Shown: positions 3 to 42,815 of the stretch, in pieces | How the letters are laid out: every line of letters starts with the position of its first letter | How positions within the stretch are numbered: position 1 is the first letter of the stretch | Origin: an uncultured Chlamydiae bacterium | Lineage (GTDB): Bacteria > Chlamydiota > Chlamydiia > Chlamydiales > JAJFMB01 | NCBI GenBank assembly: GCA_963697995.1 | Contig: OY969110.1 | Span: forward strand, 63,585 to 127,584 | Direction of reading: 5' to 3' | Length of the DNA: 64,000 nt | Position numbers and translations under genes: made by a program | The notes under the pieces: generated by a model | What the model saw: the letters and a program-made list of their open reading frames with translations, nothing else | Told to the model about the DNA's origin: nothing | Databases searched by the model: none

Positions 3-1037
3 TTAAACATTCAAGTGGAACCAAAGGCGCTCCATCTGATTGCCGGGAGAGCTGAAGGGGGATTAAGGGATGCCGAGTCACTTCTTGACCAGATTATTTC
101 ATTCCACGGAGAGAGTATTACAGAAGAGGTGGTTGCGAGCTCGTTAGGACTTGTCTCGAAGGATCTTTTTTTTGAAATTGATGGGGCTGCAAAAGAGGGG
201 GATCTTGGGAAAGCATTTGAAGTTTCAGAGCTTATTTTTTCCCAAGGGAAAGATTTTATTCAATTTACCGAAGCGCTTGCAGAGCATTTTAGGCTACTTC
301 TTGAAATCAAGCTTTCTCAAGGGATACCGGAACATCTTTCGATTTTGAAAGAGGAGTATCCTCTTTATTTAAATTCAGCGGCACACTATTCAAAAGAGAA
401 CCTACTGCACCTCTTAGAGGAGCTTATCGACGCGATGAACGAGATCAGATTTGCTCCAAACAGTCGTATTTATCTGGAGCGACTTCTGTTAAACGTGCTC
501 AGATCGCACCGAAGGGTGCCTATCGAGCACCTGGTCAAACGTTTAAGCGATTTAGAGGAGACGCTTCTGAAATTGCCCTTCGAAAAGGCCTCTTTTGTGG
601 GTGAGGAAACAAGATTTGAGGGTGAGGAAACAAGAGATGTTTTGCCTTTAGCAAATGAGCCACAAACAAAGCTTGCGCCAACCTTGCAACAGGTAAAAGC
701 GACAAGTGGAGCGGAGATAGCCCAGGAAAGGAGGGCAACCTCCTTCGAAAGGGAAGCAAACGACCCTCCAACCTTTCAGGAGGTAAAAGCGAAGAGAGCG
801 GCAGAAACTCAAAAGGCAAACAAAGAAGAGAATAAGGTAAAGGAGCCAATGCCACTTGTAAGGCCCCCTCAGACATCCGCTCCAAGGCCTATTCCGCAAC
901 CTCCGCCAAAACCTGTCGTAAATAATGAGATTTTAACTCCAAGACCTTCTTTAACAAAAGAGCAAGAGAGTCGGTTTGACACCATTCTGCAATTTATGGC
1001 TGTTGAACTAGAAGGCAAAATAGAAAAACACCCTTAA
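3..1037 (+). CDS. dnaX: DNA polymerase III gamma/tau, C-terminal part (5'-truncated by window edge)
   Basis: GGLRDAESLLDQ motif of the clamp-loader domain; frame open to the window start; Pro-rich linker; followed by ebfC as usual. Confidence 0.95.
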   Translation, partial: LNIQVEPKALHLIAGRAEGGLRDAESLLDQIISFHGESITEEVVASSLGLVSKDLFFEIDGAAKEGDLGKAFEVSELIFSQGKDFIQFTEALAEHFRLLLEIKLSQGIPEHLSILKEEYPLYLNSAAHYSKENLLHLLEELIDAMNEIRFAPNSRIYLERLLLNVLRSHRRVPIEHLVKRLSDLEETLLKLPFEKASFVGEETRFEGEETRDVLPLANEPQTKLAPTLQQVKATSGAEIAQERRATSFEREANDPPTFQEVKAKRAAETQKANKEENKVKEPMPLVRPPQTSAPRPIPQPPPKPVVNNEILTPRPSLTKEQESRFDTILQFMAVELEGKIEKHP

Positions 1038-1048
1038 AAGGAGACCAC

Positions 1049-1348
1049 ATGGGATCAGGATTTGCAAAACAAAAAAAACAAGCGAAAGAAATGCAAAAGA
1101 AATTTGCCGATCTACAGGAAAAGATGAAGGGTGCGACATTTGAAGGAACAGCTGGCAATGGTCTTGTAACGGTGACTCTGTCTGGAGAATTTGCGCTAAA
1201 AGCTCTTAAAATCAAACCGGAGTGCGTCGACAAGGACGACTTAGAGGGTTTAGAGGACTTAATCATAGCTGCACATCAAGCAGCATTCAAAAAAGCCGAA
1301 GCTGAATCGATGCAGGGACTGCCTCAAGGATTGCCCTTCCTTGGTTAA
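1049..1348 (+). CDS. ebfC: YbaB/EbfC nucleoid-associated protein
   Basis: GTAGNGLVTVTLSG and DDLEGLEDLI motifs; RBS AGGAG; directly downstream of dnaX. Confidence 0.93.
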   Translation: MGSGFAKQKKQAKEMQKKFADLQEKMKGATFEGTAGNGLVTVTLSGEFALKALKIKPECVDKDDLEGLEDLIIAAHQAAFKKAEAESMQGLPQGLPFLG

Positions 1349-1414
1349 GTTAGTTTCCCTTCACGCAAAACAGATTCGTTAAGTTAAAGCTGCTTTTTCA
1401 AGTTTGTTGCTTTA

Positions 1415-1606
1415 AGGTTAACGTCATAGGGTTTAGGTTAAAGTTGTTTTTAAAGTTTAACTTAAAACAATTAGCAAAAGCTGTTTTTTTAATGTTAACG
1501 TAATAAGGTTTAGGTTAAAGCTGTTTTTTTTATGTTAACGTAATAAGGTTTAGGTTAAAGCTGTTTTTAAAGTTTAACTTAAAACAATTAGCAAAAGCTG
1601 TTTTTA
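1415..1606 (-). repeat. Left tandem tail: five ~38-40 bp units (core-outward order Y X X Y X)
   Basis: Reverse complements of X (AAAAACAGCTTTAACCTAAACCTTATTACGTTAAC) and Y (AAAAACAGCTTTTGCTAATTGTTTTAAGTTAAAC). Confidence 0.9.
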
Positions 1607-2582
1607 AATTTTAAGGTTTTGAAATAGTTTTTTCAAGTTTTTGGCTTAAGCCAAACTTGAAAAGGGGAGGGGGGGAGAGAGGGCTTTAAAAGCCCTCTCT
1701 CCCCCCTTAACCCCCCACCACTCACCCTAAATTCGGAAATGAGATAATGGCTCCAACCTTTGGTTGGAGGGGTTCTAAGGGGGAAAATGCTTTTCCCCCT
1801 TAGGATCCCCCTTTTGCTTCCACTCCTAAGTTGAAAGCAGGGGGGAAAAGCGATTTCCCCCCTACCCCCCCCTTTGCGTCAAAGGGGGGAAAGTTCACTT
1901 TCCCCCCTACCCCCCCCTTGATCCTTTGACTTATTTTTATAACTGTTTGGCGATCAATCTATTCGGAAAAGAGCAAAATGCATTTCTTCAAGTTTTGGCC
2001 TTAAGCCAAAACTTTGGAAATGCAAAGGGGGAGGAGAGGTTTCGCACCTCTCCTCCCCTTCCCACCTCACCGCGTTAGGGGCTTTCGCCCCTAAAACCCC
2101 TTATAATTGGGTTGCAAGGGCGAAGCCTTTGCTGCGGAGAGAGGGGTTAAGGGGAGAGAGGTGCAAAACCTCTCTCCCCTTTGCCTTAAGGTTTGGCGTC
2201 AGCCAAAAACCTTAAGGGATTAAACTTCATCCGATTAGATTGAACGCCAAATAGTTACAACAATGGGTAAAAGGATCAAGGGGGGGGTAGGGGGGAAAGG
2301 AACTTTCACCCCTTTGACGCAAAGGGGGGGGTAGGGGGGAAATCGCTTTTCCCCCCTGCTTTCAACTCAGGAGGGGAAGCAAAAGGGGGATCCTAAGGGG
2401 GAAAAGCATTTTCCCCCTTAGAACCCCTCCAACCAAAGGTTGGAGCTATTATCTCGTTTCCGAATTTAGGGTGAGTGGTGGGGGGTTAAGGGGGGAGAGA
2501 GGGCTTTTAAAGCCCTCTCTCCCCCCTCCCCTTTTCAAGTTTGGCTTAAGCCAAAAACTTGAAAAAACTATTTCAAAACCTT

Positions 2583-3090
2583 AAAAAAACAGCTTTTGCT
2601 AATTGTTTTAAGTTAAACTTTAAAAACAGCTTTAACCTAAACCTTATTACGTTAACCTTAAAAAAACAGCTTTTGCTAATTGTTTTAAGTTAACCTTAAA
2701 AAAACAGCTTTAACCTAAACCTTATTACGTTAACCTTAAAAAAACAGCTTTTGCTAATTGTTTTAAGTTAAACTTTAAAAACAACTTTAACCTAAACCTT
2801 ATTACGTTAAACTTAAAAAAACAGCTTTGACCCAAACCTTATTACGTTAACATTAAAAAAACAGCTTTAACCTAAACCTTATTACGTTAACCTTAAAAAA
2901 ACAGCTTTAACCTAAACCTTATTACGTTAACCTTAAAAAAACAGCTTTTGCTAATTGTTTTAAGTTAAACTTTAAAAACAGCTTTAACCTAAACCTTATT
3001 ACGTTAACCTAAACCTTATGACGTTAACCTAAACCTTATGACGTTAACCTAAACCTTATGACGTTAGCCTAAAACTTATGACTTAAACCT
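2583..3090 (+). repeat. Right tandem tail: eleven ~38-40 bp units (Y X Y X Y X X X X Y X), then about four 20-bp units
   Basis: Units read directly from the sequence; 20-mer ACGTTAACCTAAACCTTATG repeated over 3001-3080. Confidence 0.92.
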
Positions 3091-4820
3091 TAGCGACTAT
3101 CCAACAACTGATCGATCTCCTCAGAAGTGCCAAGCTCCAAAGCCTTCTCTGCTAAAAGATACGACTCCACGATACTTAACTCTCTGATCGTTTGCTTGAT
3201 AATCGGTAAAAAACGAAGTGAAACCGATAGCTCGTTTATCCCTAAACCCAAAAGAAGAGCTGTGTATTTAGGATCGGCCGCAATCTCTCCACAAACAGAT
3301 ACCGGTATCCCAACAGCACCAGCTTCCTCGGCAACCAGGCGAATCAAACGAAGAACGCTCGGGTGGGTTGGCGTGTAGTGTCTGCTCATCGAATGGTCCG
3401 TTCGATCTACTGCCAAGGAATACTGCACCAAATCGTTTGTTCCTATAGAAAGAAAATCACACTCCCTAGCCAAAAGATCGGAAATGATCGCAGCTGATGG
3501 AACCTCCACCATGCAACCCACCGGAATCGGTTCACCAAAAACTTGCCCCTCCCGAATCAGCTCATCTCGTGCCTCGTAAAGAAGAGCTTTGGCCTCCCGC
3601 AGTTCACTCAAAGTCGAAACCATCGGAAACATCACTTTCACTTTTCCAAACTGGGAAGCCCTTAAAATAGCTCGAAGCTGCACTTTAAACAGCCCCTTCT
3701 CCTTCAAACAAAAACGAATCGCTCGGCAACCCAAAAATGAAGCAGTCTCACCCATCCCCTTCTGCCCCACCATCAACTTATCACCACCAAGATCAAACGT
3801 CCTAATCACACAAGGCAATCCCCTCATCCCATCCACAAGCCTTTTATAAAAAGCAAACTGCTCCTCTTCTGTTGGAAATGAATCTTTTGCTAAGAATAAG
3901 TACTCCGACCGAAATAGCCCCACTCCACTGCCGTTGTGCTTATGAAGCGATTCAAGCTCATCCGGCACCTCGATATTGGCAGACAGGCGCACCTCATACC
4001 CATCAAACGTCTCTGCCTTAAAGGAAGCTAGTCCCTCTAATTTTAACTCTGTTTCATACGATTGTTGTACACGCGCCTTATAAACACTTAGCGTCTCTTC
4101 ACTTGGATTAATGATCAACTCACCCAAATGACCATCCACAATCACCAAATCCCCTTCAGAAATCAAATCTAAATTAAGAGGCAAATTCGAAAGATAGGGA
4201 ATCCCTTTAGCCCTTGCAACAATCGCAGCATGCGCCGCCTCACCACCAAACTCGGTCACAAATGCCTTAATTTCAGAAGGATTGGCCTCAGCTGCGTCAG
4301 AGGCACTAATTTCTTTGGCAAAAATCACTGAATCTTTTGGAAAAGATAAAAAATTAACCCTTGTTTGATGATTTAAATAGCTCAATATCCGACGGGAAAC
4401 ATCCTCTAAGTCTTTAAACCTCTCCCTAAAAAAAGGATCCTCCATGGCGTAAAACTTTTTTCTAAAATCATCGATCACTTGATCAAATATGTAAGCGGCA
4501 TTTCTCTGTCTTTTCTTGATCTCGTCTTCAACTACTGGAATGATCTCTGGATCCTCGAGAAGATGCAAATGCGCCTCTAAAACAGTCACGCCATCTAAGG
4601 CCTTCTCCTCTTTAAGGGTCTCTTTGAGCTTCTCAATCTCTTTTTTTGAATGGAGTAGCGCTTCCCTAAAACGGGTCACTTCTCCAAGCACCTCTCCCTG
4701 AGAAAGAATCTCTTCCTTAACCTCATGGGCCGTCAAGAAAAAAAAGGCGGCTCTGCCCATCACCAATCCTGGAGAAATTTTTGTACCCTTTATCCTAATT
4801 TCACGAGTCACTAGTTTCAT
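3090..4820 (-). CDS. ptsI: PTS enzyme I
   Basis: GGEAAHAAIVAR phospho-His motif; GVGLFRSE, RTFDLGGDK, SIGTNDLVQY. Confidence 0.97.
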   Translation of the reverse strand: MKLVTREIRIKGTKISPGLVMGRAAFFFLTAHEVKEEILSQGEVLGEVTRFREALLHSKKEIEKLKETLKEEKALDGVTVLEAHLHLLEDPEIIPVVEDEIKKRQRNAAYIFDQVIDDFRKKFYAMEDPFFRERFKDLEDVSRRILSYLNHQTRVNFLSFPKDSVIFAKEISASDAAEANPSEIKAFVTEFGGEAAHAAIVARAKGIPYLSNLPLNLDLISEGDLVIVDGHLGELIINPSEETLSVYKARVQQSYETELKLEGLASFKAETFDGYEVRLSANIEVPDELESLHKHNGSGVGLFRSEYLFLAKDSFPTEEEQFAFYKRLVDGMRGLPCVIRTFDLGGDKLMVGQKGMGETASFLGCRAIRFCLKEKGLFKVQLRAILRASQFGKVKVMFPMVSTLSELREAKALLYEARDELIREGQVFGEPIPVGCMVEVPSAAIISDLLARECDFLSIGTNDLVQYSLAVDRTDHSMSRHYTPTHPSVLRLIRLVAEEAGAVGIPVSVCGEIAADPKYTALLLGLGINELSVSLRFLPIIKQTIRELSIVESYLLAEKALELGTSEEIDQLLDSR

Positions 4821-8933: not shown

Positions 8934-9136
8934 TAGTCGGCCCTTAAAAAGTAAGGGTTCCTTGAGAAAAATTTGCAAATGGAACATGCACTCTCCAAAG
9001 AAAAAGTGATACTTTTGCAACAAAAAAAGCGGTGAAGGACGCTTCCCCCCCCTTGAGGGGTTTGGTGAGGAGTAAAGCGCATTTTTTGTCAAAAGGGGCA
9101 CTTTTTATTGGAGAGGACTTTTTTAAGGGCCGACTA
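8934..9136. mobile_element. MITE-like element, family A, copy 1 (203 bp)
   Basis: ~19 bp TIR TAGTCGGCCCTTAAAAAGT; TAACATA direct repeat at both ends; homologous to 42536-42815. Confidence 0.85.
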
Positions 9137-24227: not shown

Positions 24228-24336
24228 CAAAACTTGCCCCTGCCCTCTTCTCCTTCCCCTTCCCCAAACTTGCCCTTGCCCATGCCCGTGCCCTCTTCTC
24301 CTTCCCCTAAACTTTCCCATGCCGTTGCCCGTGCCC
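24228..24336 (+). repeat. Pyrimidine-rich short repeats (TGCCCN hexamers and CCCTCTTCTCCTTCCCC modules)
   Basis: AAACTT-(TGCCCN)n-TCTTCTCCTTCCCC repeated 2-3 times; a short inverted copy lies at 25144-25169. Confidence 0.8.
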
Positions 24337-25155
24337 TGTAAGCGTCAAACGAGACCCTGTATTAAAAACCGCGAAGCGGTTGCCGGAGGGGGTAAAGGGG
24401 GAACCGCGCAGGGGTTCCCCCGCTTAGATGGAATCATTACAATTGATCAAGATGATTCGAGATTATAGTTTGTTCTTCGATGTTTATTACTTAAAGCATC
24501 TTTAAAAGGGGGAACCACGCAGGGGTTCCCCCGCTTAGATGGAATCATTACAATTGATCAAGATGATTCGAGATTATAGTTTGTTCTTCGATGTTTACAA
24601 CTTAAAGCATCTTTAAAGGGGAAACCGCGCAGGGATTTCCCCACTTAGATGAAATCATTACAATTGATCAAGATGATTCGAGATTATAGTTTGTTCTTCG
24701 ATGTTTACAACTTAAAGCATCTTTAAAGGGGGAACCGCGCAGGGGTTCCCCCGCTTAGATGGAATCATTACAATTGATCAAGATGATTCGAGATTATAGT
24801 TTGTTCTTCGATGTTTATTACTTAAAGCATCTTTAAAGGGGGAACCGCGCAGGGGTTCCCCCGCTTAGATGGAATCATTACAATTAATCAAGATGATTCG
24901 AGATTATAGTTTGTTCTTCGATGTTTACAACTTAAAGCATCTTTAAAGGGGGAAACCGCGCAGGGGTTTCCCCACTTAGATGAAATCATTACAATTGATC
25001 AAGATGATTCGAGATTATAGTTTGTTCTTCGATGTTTACAACTTAAAGCATCTTTAAAGGGGGAACCCCTGCGCGGTTCCCCCTTTACCCCCTCCGGCAA
25101 CCGCTTCGCGGTTTTAAATACATGACCTCGTTTGACGCTTACAGGGCATGGGCAA
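24325..25155. repeat. Element with 97-bp terminal inverted repeats enclosing six ~110-bp tandem units
   Basis: TIRs 24325-24421 and 25059-25155 (~5 mismatches, no indels); hairpin GGGGGAACCGCGCAGGGGTTCCCCC at 24397, 24508, 24618, 24728, 24838, 24948 and inverted at 25059. Confidence 0.95.
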
Positions 25156-42535: not shown

Positions 42536-42815
42536 TAGTCGGCCCTGAAAAAGTAAGGGTTCCTTGAGAAAAATTTGCAGTTAACGAGGAAGAGAGACAT
42601 AGCCTATTTTGCAAGGTTTATTTATATGGCAATTAGAAAAGCTCTAAAATTTCGCGAATGGAACACGCACTCTCCAAAGAAAAAGTGATCCTTTTGCAAC
42701 AAAAAAAGCGGTGAACGACGATCCAAACCCCCTTGAGGGGTTTGGTGAGGAGTAAAACGCATTTTTTGTCAAAAGGAGCGGTTTTTATTCGAGAGGACTT
42801 TTTCAGGGCCGACTA
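42536..42815. mobile_element. MITE-like element, family A, copy 2 (280 bp)
   Basis: Perfect 19-bp TIR TAGTCGGCCCTGAAAAAGT; body homologous to 8934-9136 plus ~77 bp extra. Confidence 0.85.

Follow-up and report, generated by a model that had tools for sequence, protein, structure and literature searches.

The spacer between the convergent genes ybaB (ebfC) and ptsI, in a 64,000-nt window of the chromosome of an uncultured Chlamydiae bacterium (GenBank assembly GCA_963697995.1, contig OY969110.1, positions 63,585–127,584), is wholly occupied by a large palindromic element that extends from ~30 nt after the ybaB stop up to the ptsI stop codon. Fourteen copies of this element, together with decayed fragments, are dispersed through the genome; the whole asymmetric unit has been copied, no gene is carried, and the copies lie between genes, for the most part where two convergent housekeeping genes end. 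With a probability of about 0.6, the region is a member of a lineage-specific, non-coding, non-autonomous, foldback-like family of compound palindromic repeats, in which each member would be a ~985-bp compound palindrome of nested inverted hairpin and mirror-purine (BoxC-like) units joined to two inverted, AT-rich arrays derived from its own termini.

The source genome (G000) is a single contig of 2,051,574 bp with 40.6% G+C, inside which the window lies. The family core, at window positions 1603–2590 (+ strand), is an imperfect palindrome of ~985 nt and of conserved polarity, as delimited by blastn against the genome and by alignment of all copies. Blastn with this 988-nt core recovers 14 near-full copies, comprising the window copy and 13 further loci, one of which is truncated at its 5′ end, as well as one half copy and fragments at five more places. 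A preliminary description of the window, made from its sequence, had named a lack of other copies in advance as an observation that would count against the element, and this lack was not found. The 13 further loci match the core at 90.6–97.9% in one orientation and at 79.5–87.5% when it is flipped, and 28 arm positions that do not pair are nevertheless the same in all 13 full copies aligned. The element thus has a polarity, and it is the asymmetric unit as a whole that was copied. Pairwise core identity among copies is 93.6–98.5%, and individual copies carry their own substitutions and deletions.

Each copy is contained in an intergenic spacer of 1.5–2 kb, which separates convergent genes in nine cases, co-directional genes in three and divergent genes in two. 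Scanning of 22 flanking proteins at 11 loci returned Pfam hits for 19 and none for three; they are mostly housekeeping proteins, the flanking genes including mfd, tgt, yajC, mreB, mgtE, truB and that for pyruvate kinase, and neither a mobility gene nor a recurring neighbour was found among them. Copies occur on both replichores without an orientation rule, and their positions are unrelated to the origin or terminus of replication, as judged from the cumulative GC skew, which is lowest near 720 kb and highest near 1750 kb. The window copy is far from both extremes, and this distribution gives no support to a unique chromosome-architecture, origin or terminus site. Two copies stand 2.5 kb apart, accompanied by a fragment, in an accessory-looking region (L050, G000:C1:1356000-1369000). 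This region carries a HicB-like/helix-turn-helix (HTH) gene, genes for a Gp49-like toxin and its antidote and for HicA/HicB, ankyrin-repeat genes, of which one encodes at least 1574 aa, and a gene for a protein with an Ntox50 domain. The genes between these paired copies at G000:1.36 Mb were considered as mobility cargo and rejected, being toxin-antitoxin and ankyrin genes and not mobility genes.

Beyond this genome, searches of 40 relatives and of 399 other genomes of the order recovered an ~80-nt unit described below and no whole core; two candidates were scored per genome and one genome went unscored, so that this result is a floor. An element-specific 27-mer has no exact match in metagenome contigs, and blastn of the core gave no match in plasmid or phage collections. 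Among the public sequencing runs searched, no RNA run shares any of the sequence, and the sole DNA run that does is a soil metagenome with a 0.10 share of the words in 151-nt contigs; three of these contigs fall on positions 600–3900, covering 720–1000 and 2119–2269, and none spans the element, so that they inform neither the assembly nor expression. In G243, a distant relative from another family of the order, the convergent ptsI and ybaB are kept, and two small ORFs and ordinary hairpins take up the interval where the element sits in G000, an arrangement that weakly supports insertion. G002, which belongs to the same family as G000, was rejected as a source of an empty site because it is not syntenic at ybaB.

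At the window locus, positions 1360–2890 form an inverted repeat whose axis falls between 2103 and 2104 in a gapped self-alignment. Its ungapped arms, 1609–1916 and 2280–2587, are 308 nt long and 88% complementary, with complementarity reaching 100% between 1609–1674 and 2521–2586, and the outer tandem-array arms (1412–1568 and 2857–3013) are 96% complementary. Once gaps are allowed, complementarity is 73–88% within ~200 nt of the axis, 96–100% between 1450–1900 and 2298–2778, and 81–90% at the outermost edge. The right outer arm (2280–2587, + strand; inverted repeat I1), which mirrors 1609–1916, falls in the 96–100% range. The diverged inner palindrome (1915–2290), at 73–88%, is built from asymmetric spacers (~1920–1978 and 2220–2279), inner modules and a central hairpin pair around the axis, and it would be the older part of the structure.

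Folded as single-stranded DNA (ssDNA), the 988-nt core adopts a predicted rod of −523.9 kcal/mol, compared with −162.5 ± 7.9 kcal/mol for 20 shuffles (z = −45.7), and when the pairing span is limited to 70 nt or less it resolves into 23 local hairpins with −255 kcal/mol. A module of hairpin A followed by hairpin B recurs four times, at 1630–1714, 1979–2058, 2149–2219 and 2482–2565. The outer-left module (1630–1714, + strand; repeat families D7 and D9) comprises, in the span-limited fold, hairpin A at 1630–1663 and hairpin B at 1664–1714, and is followed by a pyrimidine tract. Further along the left arm, the same fold predicts a chain of G-run/C-run hairpins (1769–1930, + strand; direct-repeat family D2) at 1769–1810, 1815–1839, 1840–1862 and 1878–1930. 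The arm opposite this chain carries an R′-R-Y motif, AAAGGGGGGG / AGGGGGGAAA / TTTCCCCCCT, of a type that has 19 matches genome-wide, every one of them inside element copies. The hairpin modules likewise never stand alone outside element copies and fragments, hairpin B being found 36 of 37 times in full copies and once in a fragment. No ORF of 60 aa or more is present in 1349–3089, where the only candidates are TTG ORFs of 50 and 44 aa; a 66-aa TTG ORF across the centre, intact in nine of 14 copies, was rejected as spurious, since its four variable codons are all amino-acid-changing and its best Pfam match has E = 0.15. Much of the preliminary description survives this closer view, namely an inverted repeat about an axis near 2104, inner spacers more diverged than the outer arms, a fold as either one rod or many hairpins, the hairpin positions that it named (included among the 23 computed ones), the fourfold A+B module and the absence of an ORF.

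The ~80-nt unit at the centre of the palindrome (2103–2186) consists of a GCAAGGG hairpin followed by GGAGAGAGGGG-TTAA-GGGGAGAGAGG-loop-CCTCTCTCCCC. The latter part, a mirror-purine and hairpin unit at 2134–2177 (+ strand) recognised by sequence reading, by its matches in G002 and G243 and by pattern scans, holds an 11-nt perfect mirror block and a hairpin of 11–12 bp and, with the hairpin at 2107–2131, makes up the unit that is present in other chlamydial genomes. It is a potential purine-motif intrastrand triplex: the general pattern of such structures (a hairpin of purine and pyrimidine blocks, a mirror third block and short loops) is matched at the level of sequence only. The ~80-nt unit occurs in two of the 399 other genomes of the order, once in G002 and at least five times in G243, and an all-species pattern scan places it in three chlamydial records; it is also present in three low-GC metagenome contigs. 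In these other genomes and contigs it forms palindromic doublets of 150–235 nt, those of G243 being flanked by GGCAC-type short repeats.

The closest described likeness of the mirror-purine unit is the BoxC/TMECO family, which is intergenic, often arranged in inverted pairs, unlinked to mobile elements and associated with local instability, according to PMC4666352, where triplex formation by TMECO was addressed by CD/NMR or chemical footprinting. Both have two purine blocks and one pyrimidine block, consecutive, of 9–11 nt and with short loops, and both are intergenic and not linked to known mobile elements. They differ in block order, which is R′-R-Y in the element and Y-R-R′ in TMECO, and in that the units of the element are never alone and always form part of a 985-nt compound palindrome. 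The published TMECO pattern, CCCTCNCCC-N3-6-GGGNGAGGG-N3-GGGNGAGGG, has no match on either strand of G000. A similar mirror-purine and hairpin motif, GAGAGGGGT-N-GGGGAGAGAGG-loop-CCTCT, was encountered in conserved multi-copy repeats of unrelated phyla, at eight loci in contigs of betaproteobacterial metagenome-assembled genomes (MAGs; L031, L035, L037, L038, L046-L049) and at seven in a Victivallaceae MAG (L034, L036, L039, L041, L043-L045). These motifs have only the purine blocks in common with the chlamydial unit and possibly represent further BoxC-like families.

Both ends of the element pass into minisatellite arrays. On the left (1379–1605, + strand), the array is G/T-rich on the + strand and made of ~40-nt units of TTAGGTTAAAGCTGTTTTT type (Tandem Repeats Finder (TRF) period 40 × 4.4; families D3 and D5), its outermost unit being a shortened copy of the core terminus. 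On the right (2577–3092, + strand), a C/A-rich array (TRF period 40 × 12.1 and period 20 × 5.3) consists of 40- and 77-nt units and then of a 20-nt unit repeated 5.3 times, and reaches into the ptsI stop codon. In the window element as a whole, the tandem parts measure 225 nt at the left edge and 515 nt at the right, with periods of 20, 40 and 77 nt. All copies in the genome are bracketed by AT-rich arrays of 19–32% G+C, rich in G and T on the left side and in C and A on the right, which are mosaics of TTTAGG- or TTAAGG-like filler and shortened copies of the element terminus and which repeat short TTACGWAWTAAGG-type motifs. The core terminus itself, GGTTTTGAAACAGTTTTTTCAAG, is conserved in 12–13 of the 14 copies. 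Its terminal 20-mer, with up to three substitutions allowed, occurs 56 times genome-wide (a control with the reversed sequence gives 2), at 21 core termini, in 30 array positions within 1.2 kb of a core and five times elsewhere. Some array types are common to several loci, and array sequences also differ among loci; only at the window locus does each flank find its best match in the other, and the 1.7-kb symmetry seen there is thus a local extreme of a family palindrome of ~1 kb. The idea that the arrays end at the T-run of an intrinsic terminator, used as a target, was considered and dropped, as no hairpin precedes the T-run at the window locus.

Some arrays contain a second unit of ~58 nt, AAAGCAAAGCCTTGATRCRATTTTTTCAAGGTTAAGCCTTAAGCC, which has a hairpin of its own and a TTTTTTCAAG segment in common with the core terminus. 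It flanks the copies at G000 1213661, 1360969, 1363454, 1489069, 1930869 and 1959391 and replaces the usual terminus at two copies. The array to the left of the copy at 512662 ends at its outer edge in 14 tandem AGGGTTT heptamers (G000:C1:512445-512536), a heptamer that is also the unit of plant-type telomeric repeats.

The graded symmetry of the palindrome is also a property of the family, whose consensus arms are complementary at 294 of 299 positions in the outer 300 nt and at 138 of 178 in the inner part. Near-perfect outer arms around a diverged centre are what outward growth by successive inverted duplications would leave behind. The arms also covary, as 22 of 94 variable pairs show at least two Watson-Crick types, compared with 13.0 ± 1.7 after shuffling (0 of 2000 shuffles reach 22), and some double changes are private to one copy, such as a T-A pair in the window copy where 11 others have C-G. 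Arm complementarity is 0.8903 within copies and 0.8838 between copies, a difference reached in none of 5000 permutations, and this better fit within copies points to correction from arm to arm in place. Template switching at quasi-palindromes is a known process by which such correction occurs.

On this evidence, the element may have grown outward from an old palindromic doublet of ~240 nt by fold-back, hairpin-primed inverted duplication, and its two arms would still be partly homogenised in place by template switching or by gene conversion between them. Replication that runs into the very stable G/C hairpin core would slip or restart there, giving rise to the terminal arrays. Fold-back growth has been described in E. 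coli lacking SbcCD and RecA, where resected DNA folds back and a palindrome seeds hairpin-capped ends that replicate to give larger inverted duplications centred on the palindrome (PMC3315005). The likeness to that system lies in a palindrome without a hairpin nuclease and in nested palindromes whose outer parts are younger; the difference is that it concerns a laboratory rearrangement of a chromosome arm, and no dispersed element, in cells lacking both SbcCD and RecA, of which only SbcCD was looked at here, and the link from that process to the element is accordingly put forward as an inference. Growth, homogenisation and array formation would be tolerated in G000 because it has no SbcCD hairpin nuclease: SbcD gave no match in this genome (the control was positive in 13 of 14 genomes), and SbcC gave weak P-loop hits only.

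The likeliest way for new loci to be colonised would be an enzyme acting in trans whose gene the chromosome has lost, or which was never assembled with it; ectopic copying mediated by repair or recombination is a second option. Matches in G000 are lacking for seven transposase families, namely Y1_Tnp/RAYT (PF01797; control positive in 6 of 14 genomes), the TnpB zinc-ribbon (PF07282; control positive), DDE_Tnp_1, rve, DDE_3 and IS110 (controls positive) and IS256/Mutator-type (PF00872; control positive, the eukaryotic MULE domain not being part of the search), and an all-against-all comparison of 1737 ORFs revealed no multi-copy protein family resembling that of an insertion sequence (IS). The element is regarded here as selfish or neutral, and an influence on the transcription of convergent genes, if any, as a by-product. 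It would be a bolder and unlikely proposal that it needs no transposase whatever and is a bacterial counterpart of eukaryotic foldback elements, a structure-driven, self-propagating DNA. In that event a kilobase hairpin or cruciform, purine triplexes and G-runs would stall forks and provoke breaks, and repair of these breaks, in an intracellular bacterium free of SbcCD, would prime on folded-back ends and switch templates to other copies. The element would thereby enlarge outward from its middle, acquire minisatellites at its ends and come to be copied into new sites close to terminators.

Several points weigh against a foldback-like mobile family that grew outward. Its structure is read from an unverified assembly. 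The same gradient of symmetry would follow equally from selection for a non-symmetric centre that hinders cruciform extrusion, the excess of within-copy complementarity is small (0.65 percentage points), and related copies can inflate shuffle tests. No transposase was found, which leaves the trans-acting enzyme hypothetical, and the core grades into related array sequence, so that neither a target-site duplication nor a sharp end is definable. Transposition as such lacks a close-relative empty site in the collections searched. The excess of convergent settings (nine of 14 copies against 298 of 1676 junctions genome-wide, or 17.8%; binomial p = 1.5e-4) is built on crude ORF calls, and automatic and manual classification of the junctions both arrive at nine of 14 while classing two loci differently. 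Finally, SbcD is above cut-off in only four of 41 genomes of the order; an absence so widespread can at most be permissive and does not account for the element being confined to this lineage.

A functional cis-element maintained by selection is conceivable and rather improbable. It would act either as a bidirectional transcription barrier or insulator, or as a protein-binding site in which the arrays are iteron- or centromere-like nucleoid-organising sites and the G/C core a structural block. The convergent setting of nine copies, the complete filling of the ybaB-ptsI spacer, a weak symmetric pair of terminator-like hairpins at 1769–1809 (+) and 2427–2387 (−), the reiterated short motifs of the arrays and the covariation of the arms are all consistent with such a role. 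Terminator-like sites are, however, no more numerous than in shuffled sequence (4 versus a mean of 4.4), and in the terminal hairpins the T-run precedes the stem and does not follow it. Five of the 14 copies are outside convergent settings, there are only 14 copies for ~298 convergent junctions, the arrays are unlike between loci, decayed fragments are present, and searches of other genomes of the family and order did not recover the core. Genes for a large structured non-coding RNA (ncRNA), or a source of small hairpin-derived RNAs, would account for the extreme predicted stability, for the high conservation of the copies and their polarity and for the double changes that preserve arm pairing, and are nevertheless an improbable explanation. 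Rfam returned 92 sub-threshold hits and none at the gathering score, the best reaching 34.5 bits against a cut-off of 99 and the top matches being generic miRNA-hairpin models at 30–35 bits against cut-offs of 70–99; promoter-like sites are no commoner than in shuffled sequence and are absent from the asymmetric inner part. A near-perfect DNA palindrome would, moreover, yield nearly identical RNA from both strands, covariation can arise equally at the DNA level, and purine-motif triplexes do not form in RNA according to PMC4666352.

The inverted doublets of hairpins resemble REPINs, and related short doublets exist in other chlamydial genomes, which would suit a REPIN/BIME or IS200/IS605 (PATE) element whose ssDNA hairpin is moved by a HUH Y1 enzyme. 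This account, close to the ssDNA mobilisation by HUH/RAYT or IS200/IS605 enzymes that was first entertained for the locus, now seems very improbable, because neither a Y1 transposase nor TnpB is detectable in the genome, the hairpin modules are never found alone and the 985-nt unit is ~10 times the size of a REPIN. Concatemer junctions of poxviruses and the targets of protelomerases combine mirrored tandem repeats, a unique stretch and an imperfect central turnaround. A relic of replicated or fused hairpin telomeres from a linear replicon could likewise explain the inverted arrays of tandem repeats, the near-perfect arms and their imperfect centre, together with the telomere-like T(2-4)A(1-2)G(2-3) units of the arrays, including the AGGGTTT tract. 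Against such an origin, the catalytic domain of ResT/TelK telomere resolvases (PF16684) has no match in G000 with a positive control; an ORF crosses the contig-end junction and no element lies at the ends, so that the chromosome reads as circular; the 14 copies are internal, among housekeeping genes; and phage and plasmid collections hold no match. It is already refuted, if weakly, and has next to no probability left. No more credible than this is an assembly artefact, be it a chimera formed by fold-back or a repeat that was collapsed or duplicated, which would draw on the low depth and short, non-spanning contigs of the only public run with shared sequence. The copies occupy 14 loci with different unique flanks, have one left/right asymmetry and the same invariant unpaired positions in common, bear copy-specific substitutions and deletions and are accompanied by decayed fragments, whereas fold-back chimeras are perfect palindromes at contig ends.

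The Foldback (FB) elements of Drosophila and other eukaryotes have long inverted arms that make up the bulk of the element and end in variable short tandem arrays, most of their copies are non-coding, and they reach kilobase size. The element resembles them in its long inverted arms ending in variable tandem arrays, its lack of coding capacity and its kilobase size, and differs in being bacterial, in lacking a Mutator/IS256-type or other tested transposase, in having no definable target-site duplication and in its arms, each a chain of G/C hairpins and triplex-type motifs. REP, BIME and REPIN sequences and miniature inverted-repeat transposable elements (MITEs) such as Correia and ERIC are non-coding palindromic intergenic repeats, enriched at 3′ ends and composed of compound inverted units. 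The element is also non-coding, palindromic, intergenic, enriched at gene 3′ ends and compound; in contrast, it is 5–40 times larger, as the preliminary description had anticipated in calling it much larger and more ordered than REP/BIME/REPIN elements, is present in 14 copies and not hundreds, is accompanied by neither RAYT nor parent IS in this genome, and is flanked by self-derived minisatellite arrays. MITEs range up to a few hundred base pairs. The element has terminal inverted repeats in the sense that it is inverted as a whole, no matching transposase or parent IS was found for it, and its size (a core of ~985 nt, 1.5–2 kb with arrays) is beyond that of MITEs, for which the introduction of PMC4666352 gives a usual size of <200 bp. 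It consequently lies outside the REPIN/RAYT, IS200/IS605 PATE, classical MITE (by size and parent IS), TMECO and telomere-junction categories and appears to behave most like a foldback or MITE-type selfish repeat. No such element was found described in literature on palindromic repeats of Chlamydiae, bacterial foldback elements, MITEs and repetitive elements of Chlamydiales, or SbcCD and long palindromes; the Waddlia genome paper, in the part available, reports numerous repeats and transposases and does not mention palindromes.

The genes on either side of the window copy were identified by Pfam. The left one is ybaB (1049–1348, + strand; YbaB_DNA_bd, E = 4.7e-26), and the first left-array unit begins ~30 nt past its stop; the right one is ptsI (3090–4820, − strand; PEP-utilizers_C, E = 2.7e-95). 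Upstream of the interval lies dnaX, and downstream of it ptsH-hprK.

The genome contains other repeats that are distinct from the palindrome. An unrelated MITE-like repeat of 282 nt with 20-nt terminal inverted repeats (TAGTCGGCCCTGAAAAAGT...) is present at window positions 42536–42815 and 8934–9136 and genome-wide, with 198 blastn hits, 104 of them of at least 250 nt, that total ~40 kb and are often in tandem with a period of ~282. No matching transposase was found for it in the genome, and the family suggests past or external transposase activity. Long tandem regions at G000:C1:1014471-1027094 (12.6 kb) and 1229449-1240005 (10.6 kb) have periods of 81 and 27 nt and 56–57% G+C; their GGN-triplet units suggest giant collagen-like (Gly-X-Y) coding repeats, and the assembly there may be unreliable. 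A compound repeat at window 24233–25083 (G000 87817-88667) places GGGCA(C/T)GGGCA short repeats beside tandem units of 110–331 nt that contain a GGGGGAACC...GGTTCCCCC hairpin, and recurs at G000 464438-465338, 704678-704948, 951974-952637 and 1306460-1307893 and at L022 in G243. A pair of small ORFs of 122 and 155 aa with no Pfam match, present at G000:C1:413623-414529, 1643261-1644167 and 1652842-1653748, accounts for the only three-copy protein families found besides the collagen-like repeats.

Palindromes longer than a few hundred base pairs are regarded, from work on SbcCD in E. coli, as barely tolerable in bacterial chromosomes. It is therefore unexpected that a small chlamydial genome holds fourteen ordered palindromes of ~1 kb and 104 near-full copies of a MITE-like repeat with no recognisable transposase. 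Should the palindromes prove to be an ordinary fossil MITE-like family, their value would be mainly descriptive. They also call for caution in the assembly and annotation of chlamydial MAGs, and their arrays, which differ between loci and may vary between strains, are possible strain-typing loci. Beyond these uses, the family would offer a natural system in which to study the origin, growth, lasting symmetry and dispersal of long palindromes where the usual enzymes are missing, and a way to ask whether loss of the hairpin nuclease opens the genomes of intracellular bacteria to long palindromes.

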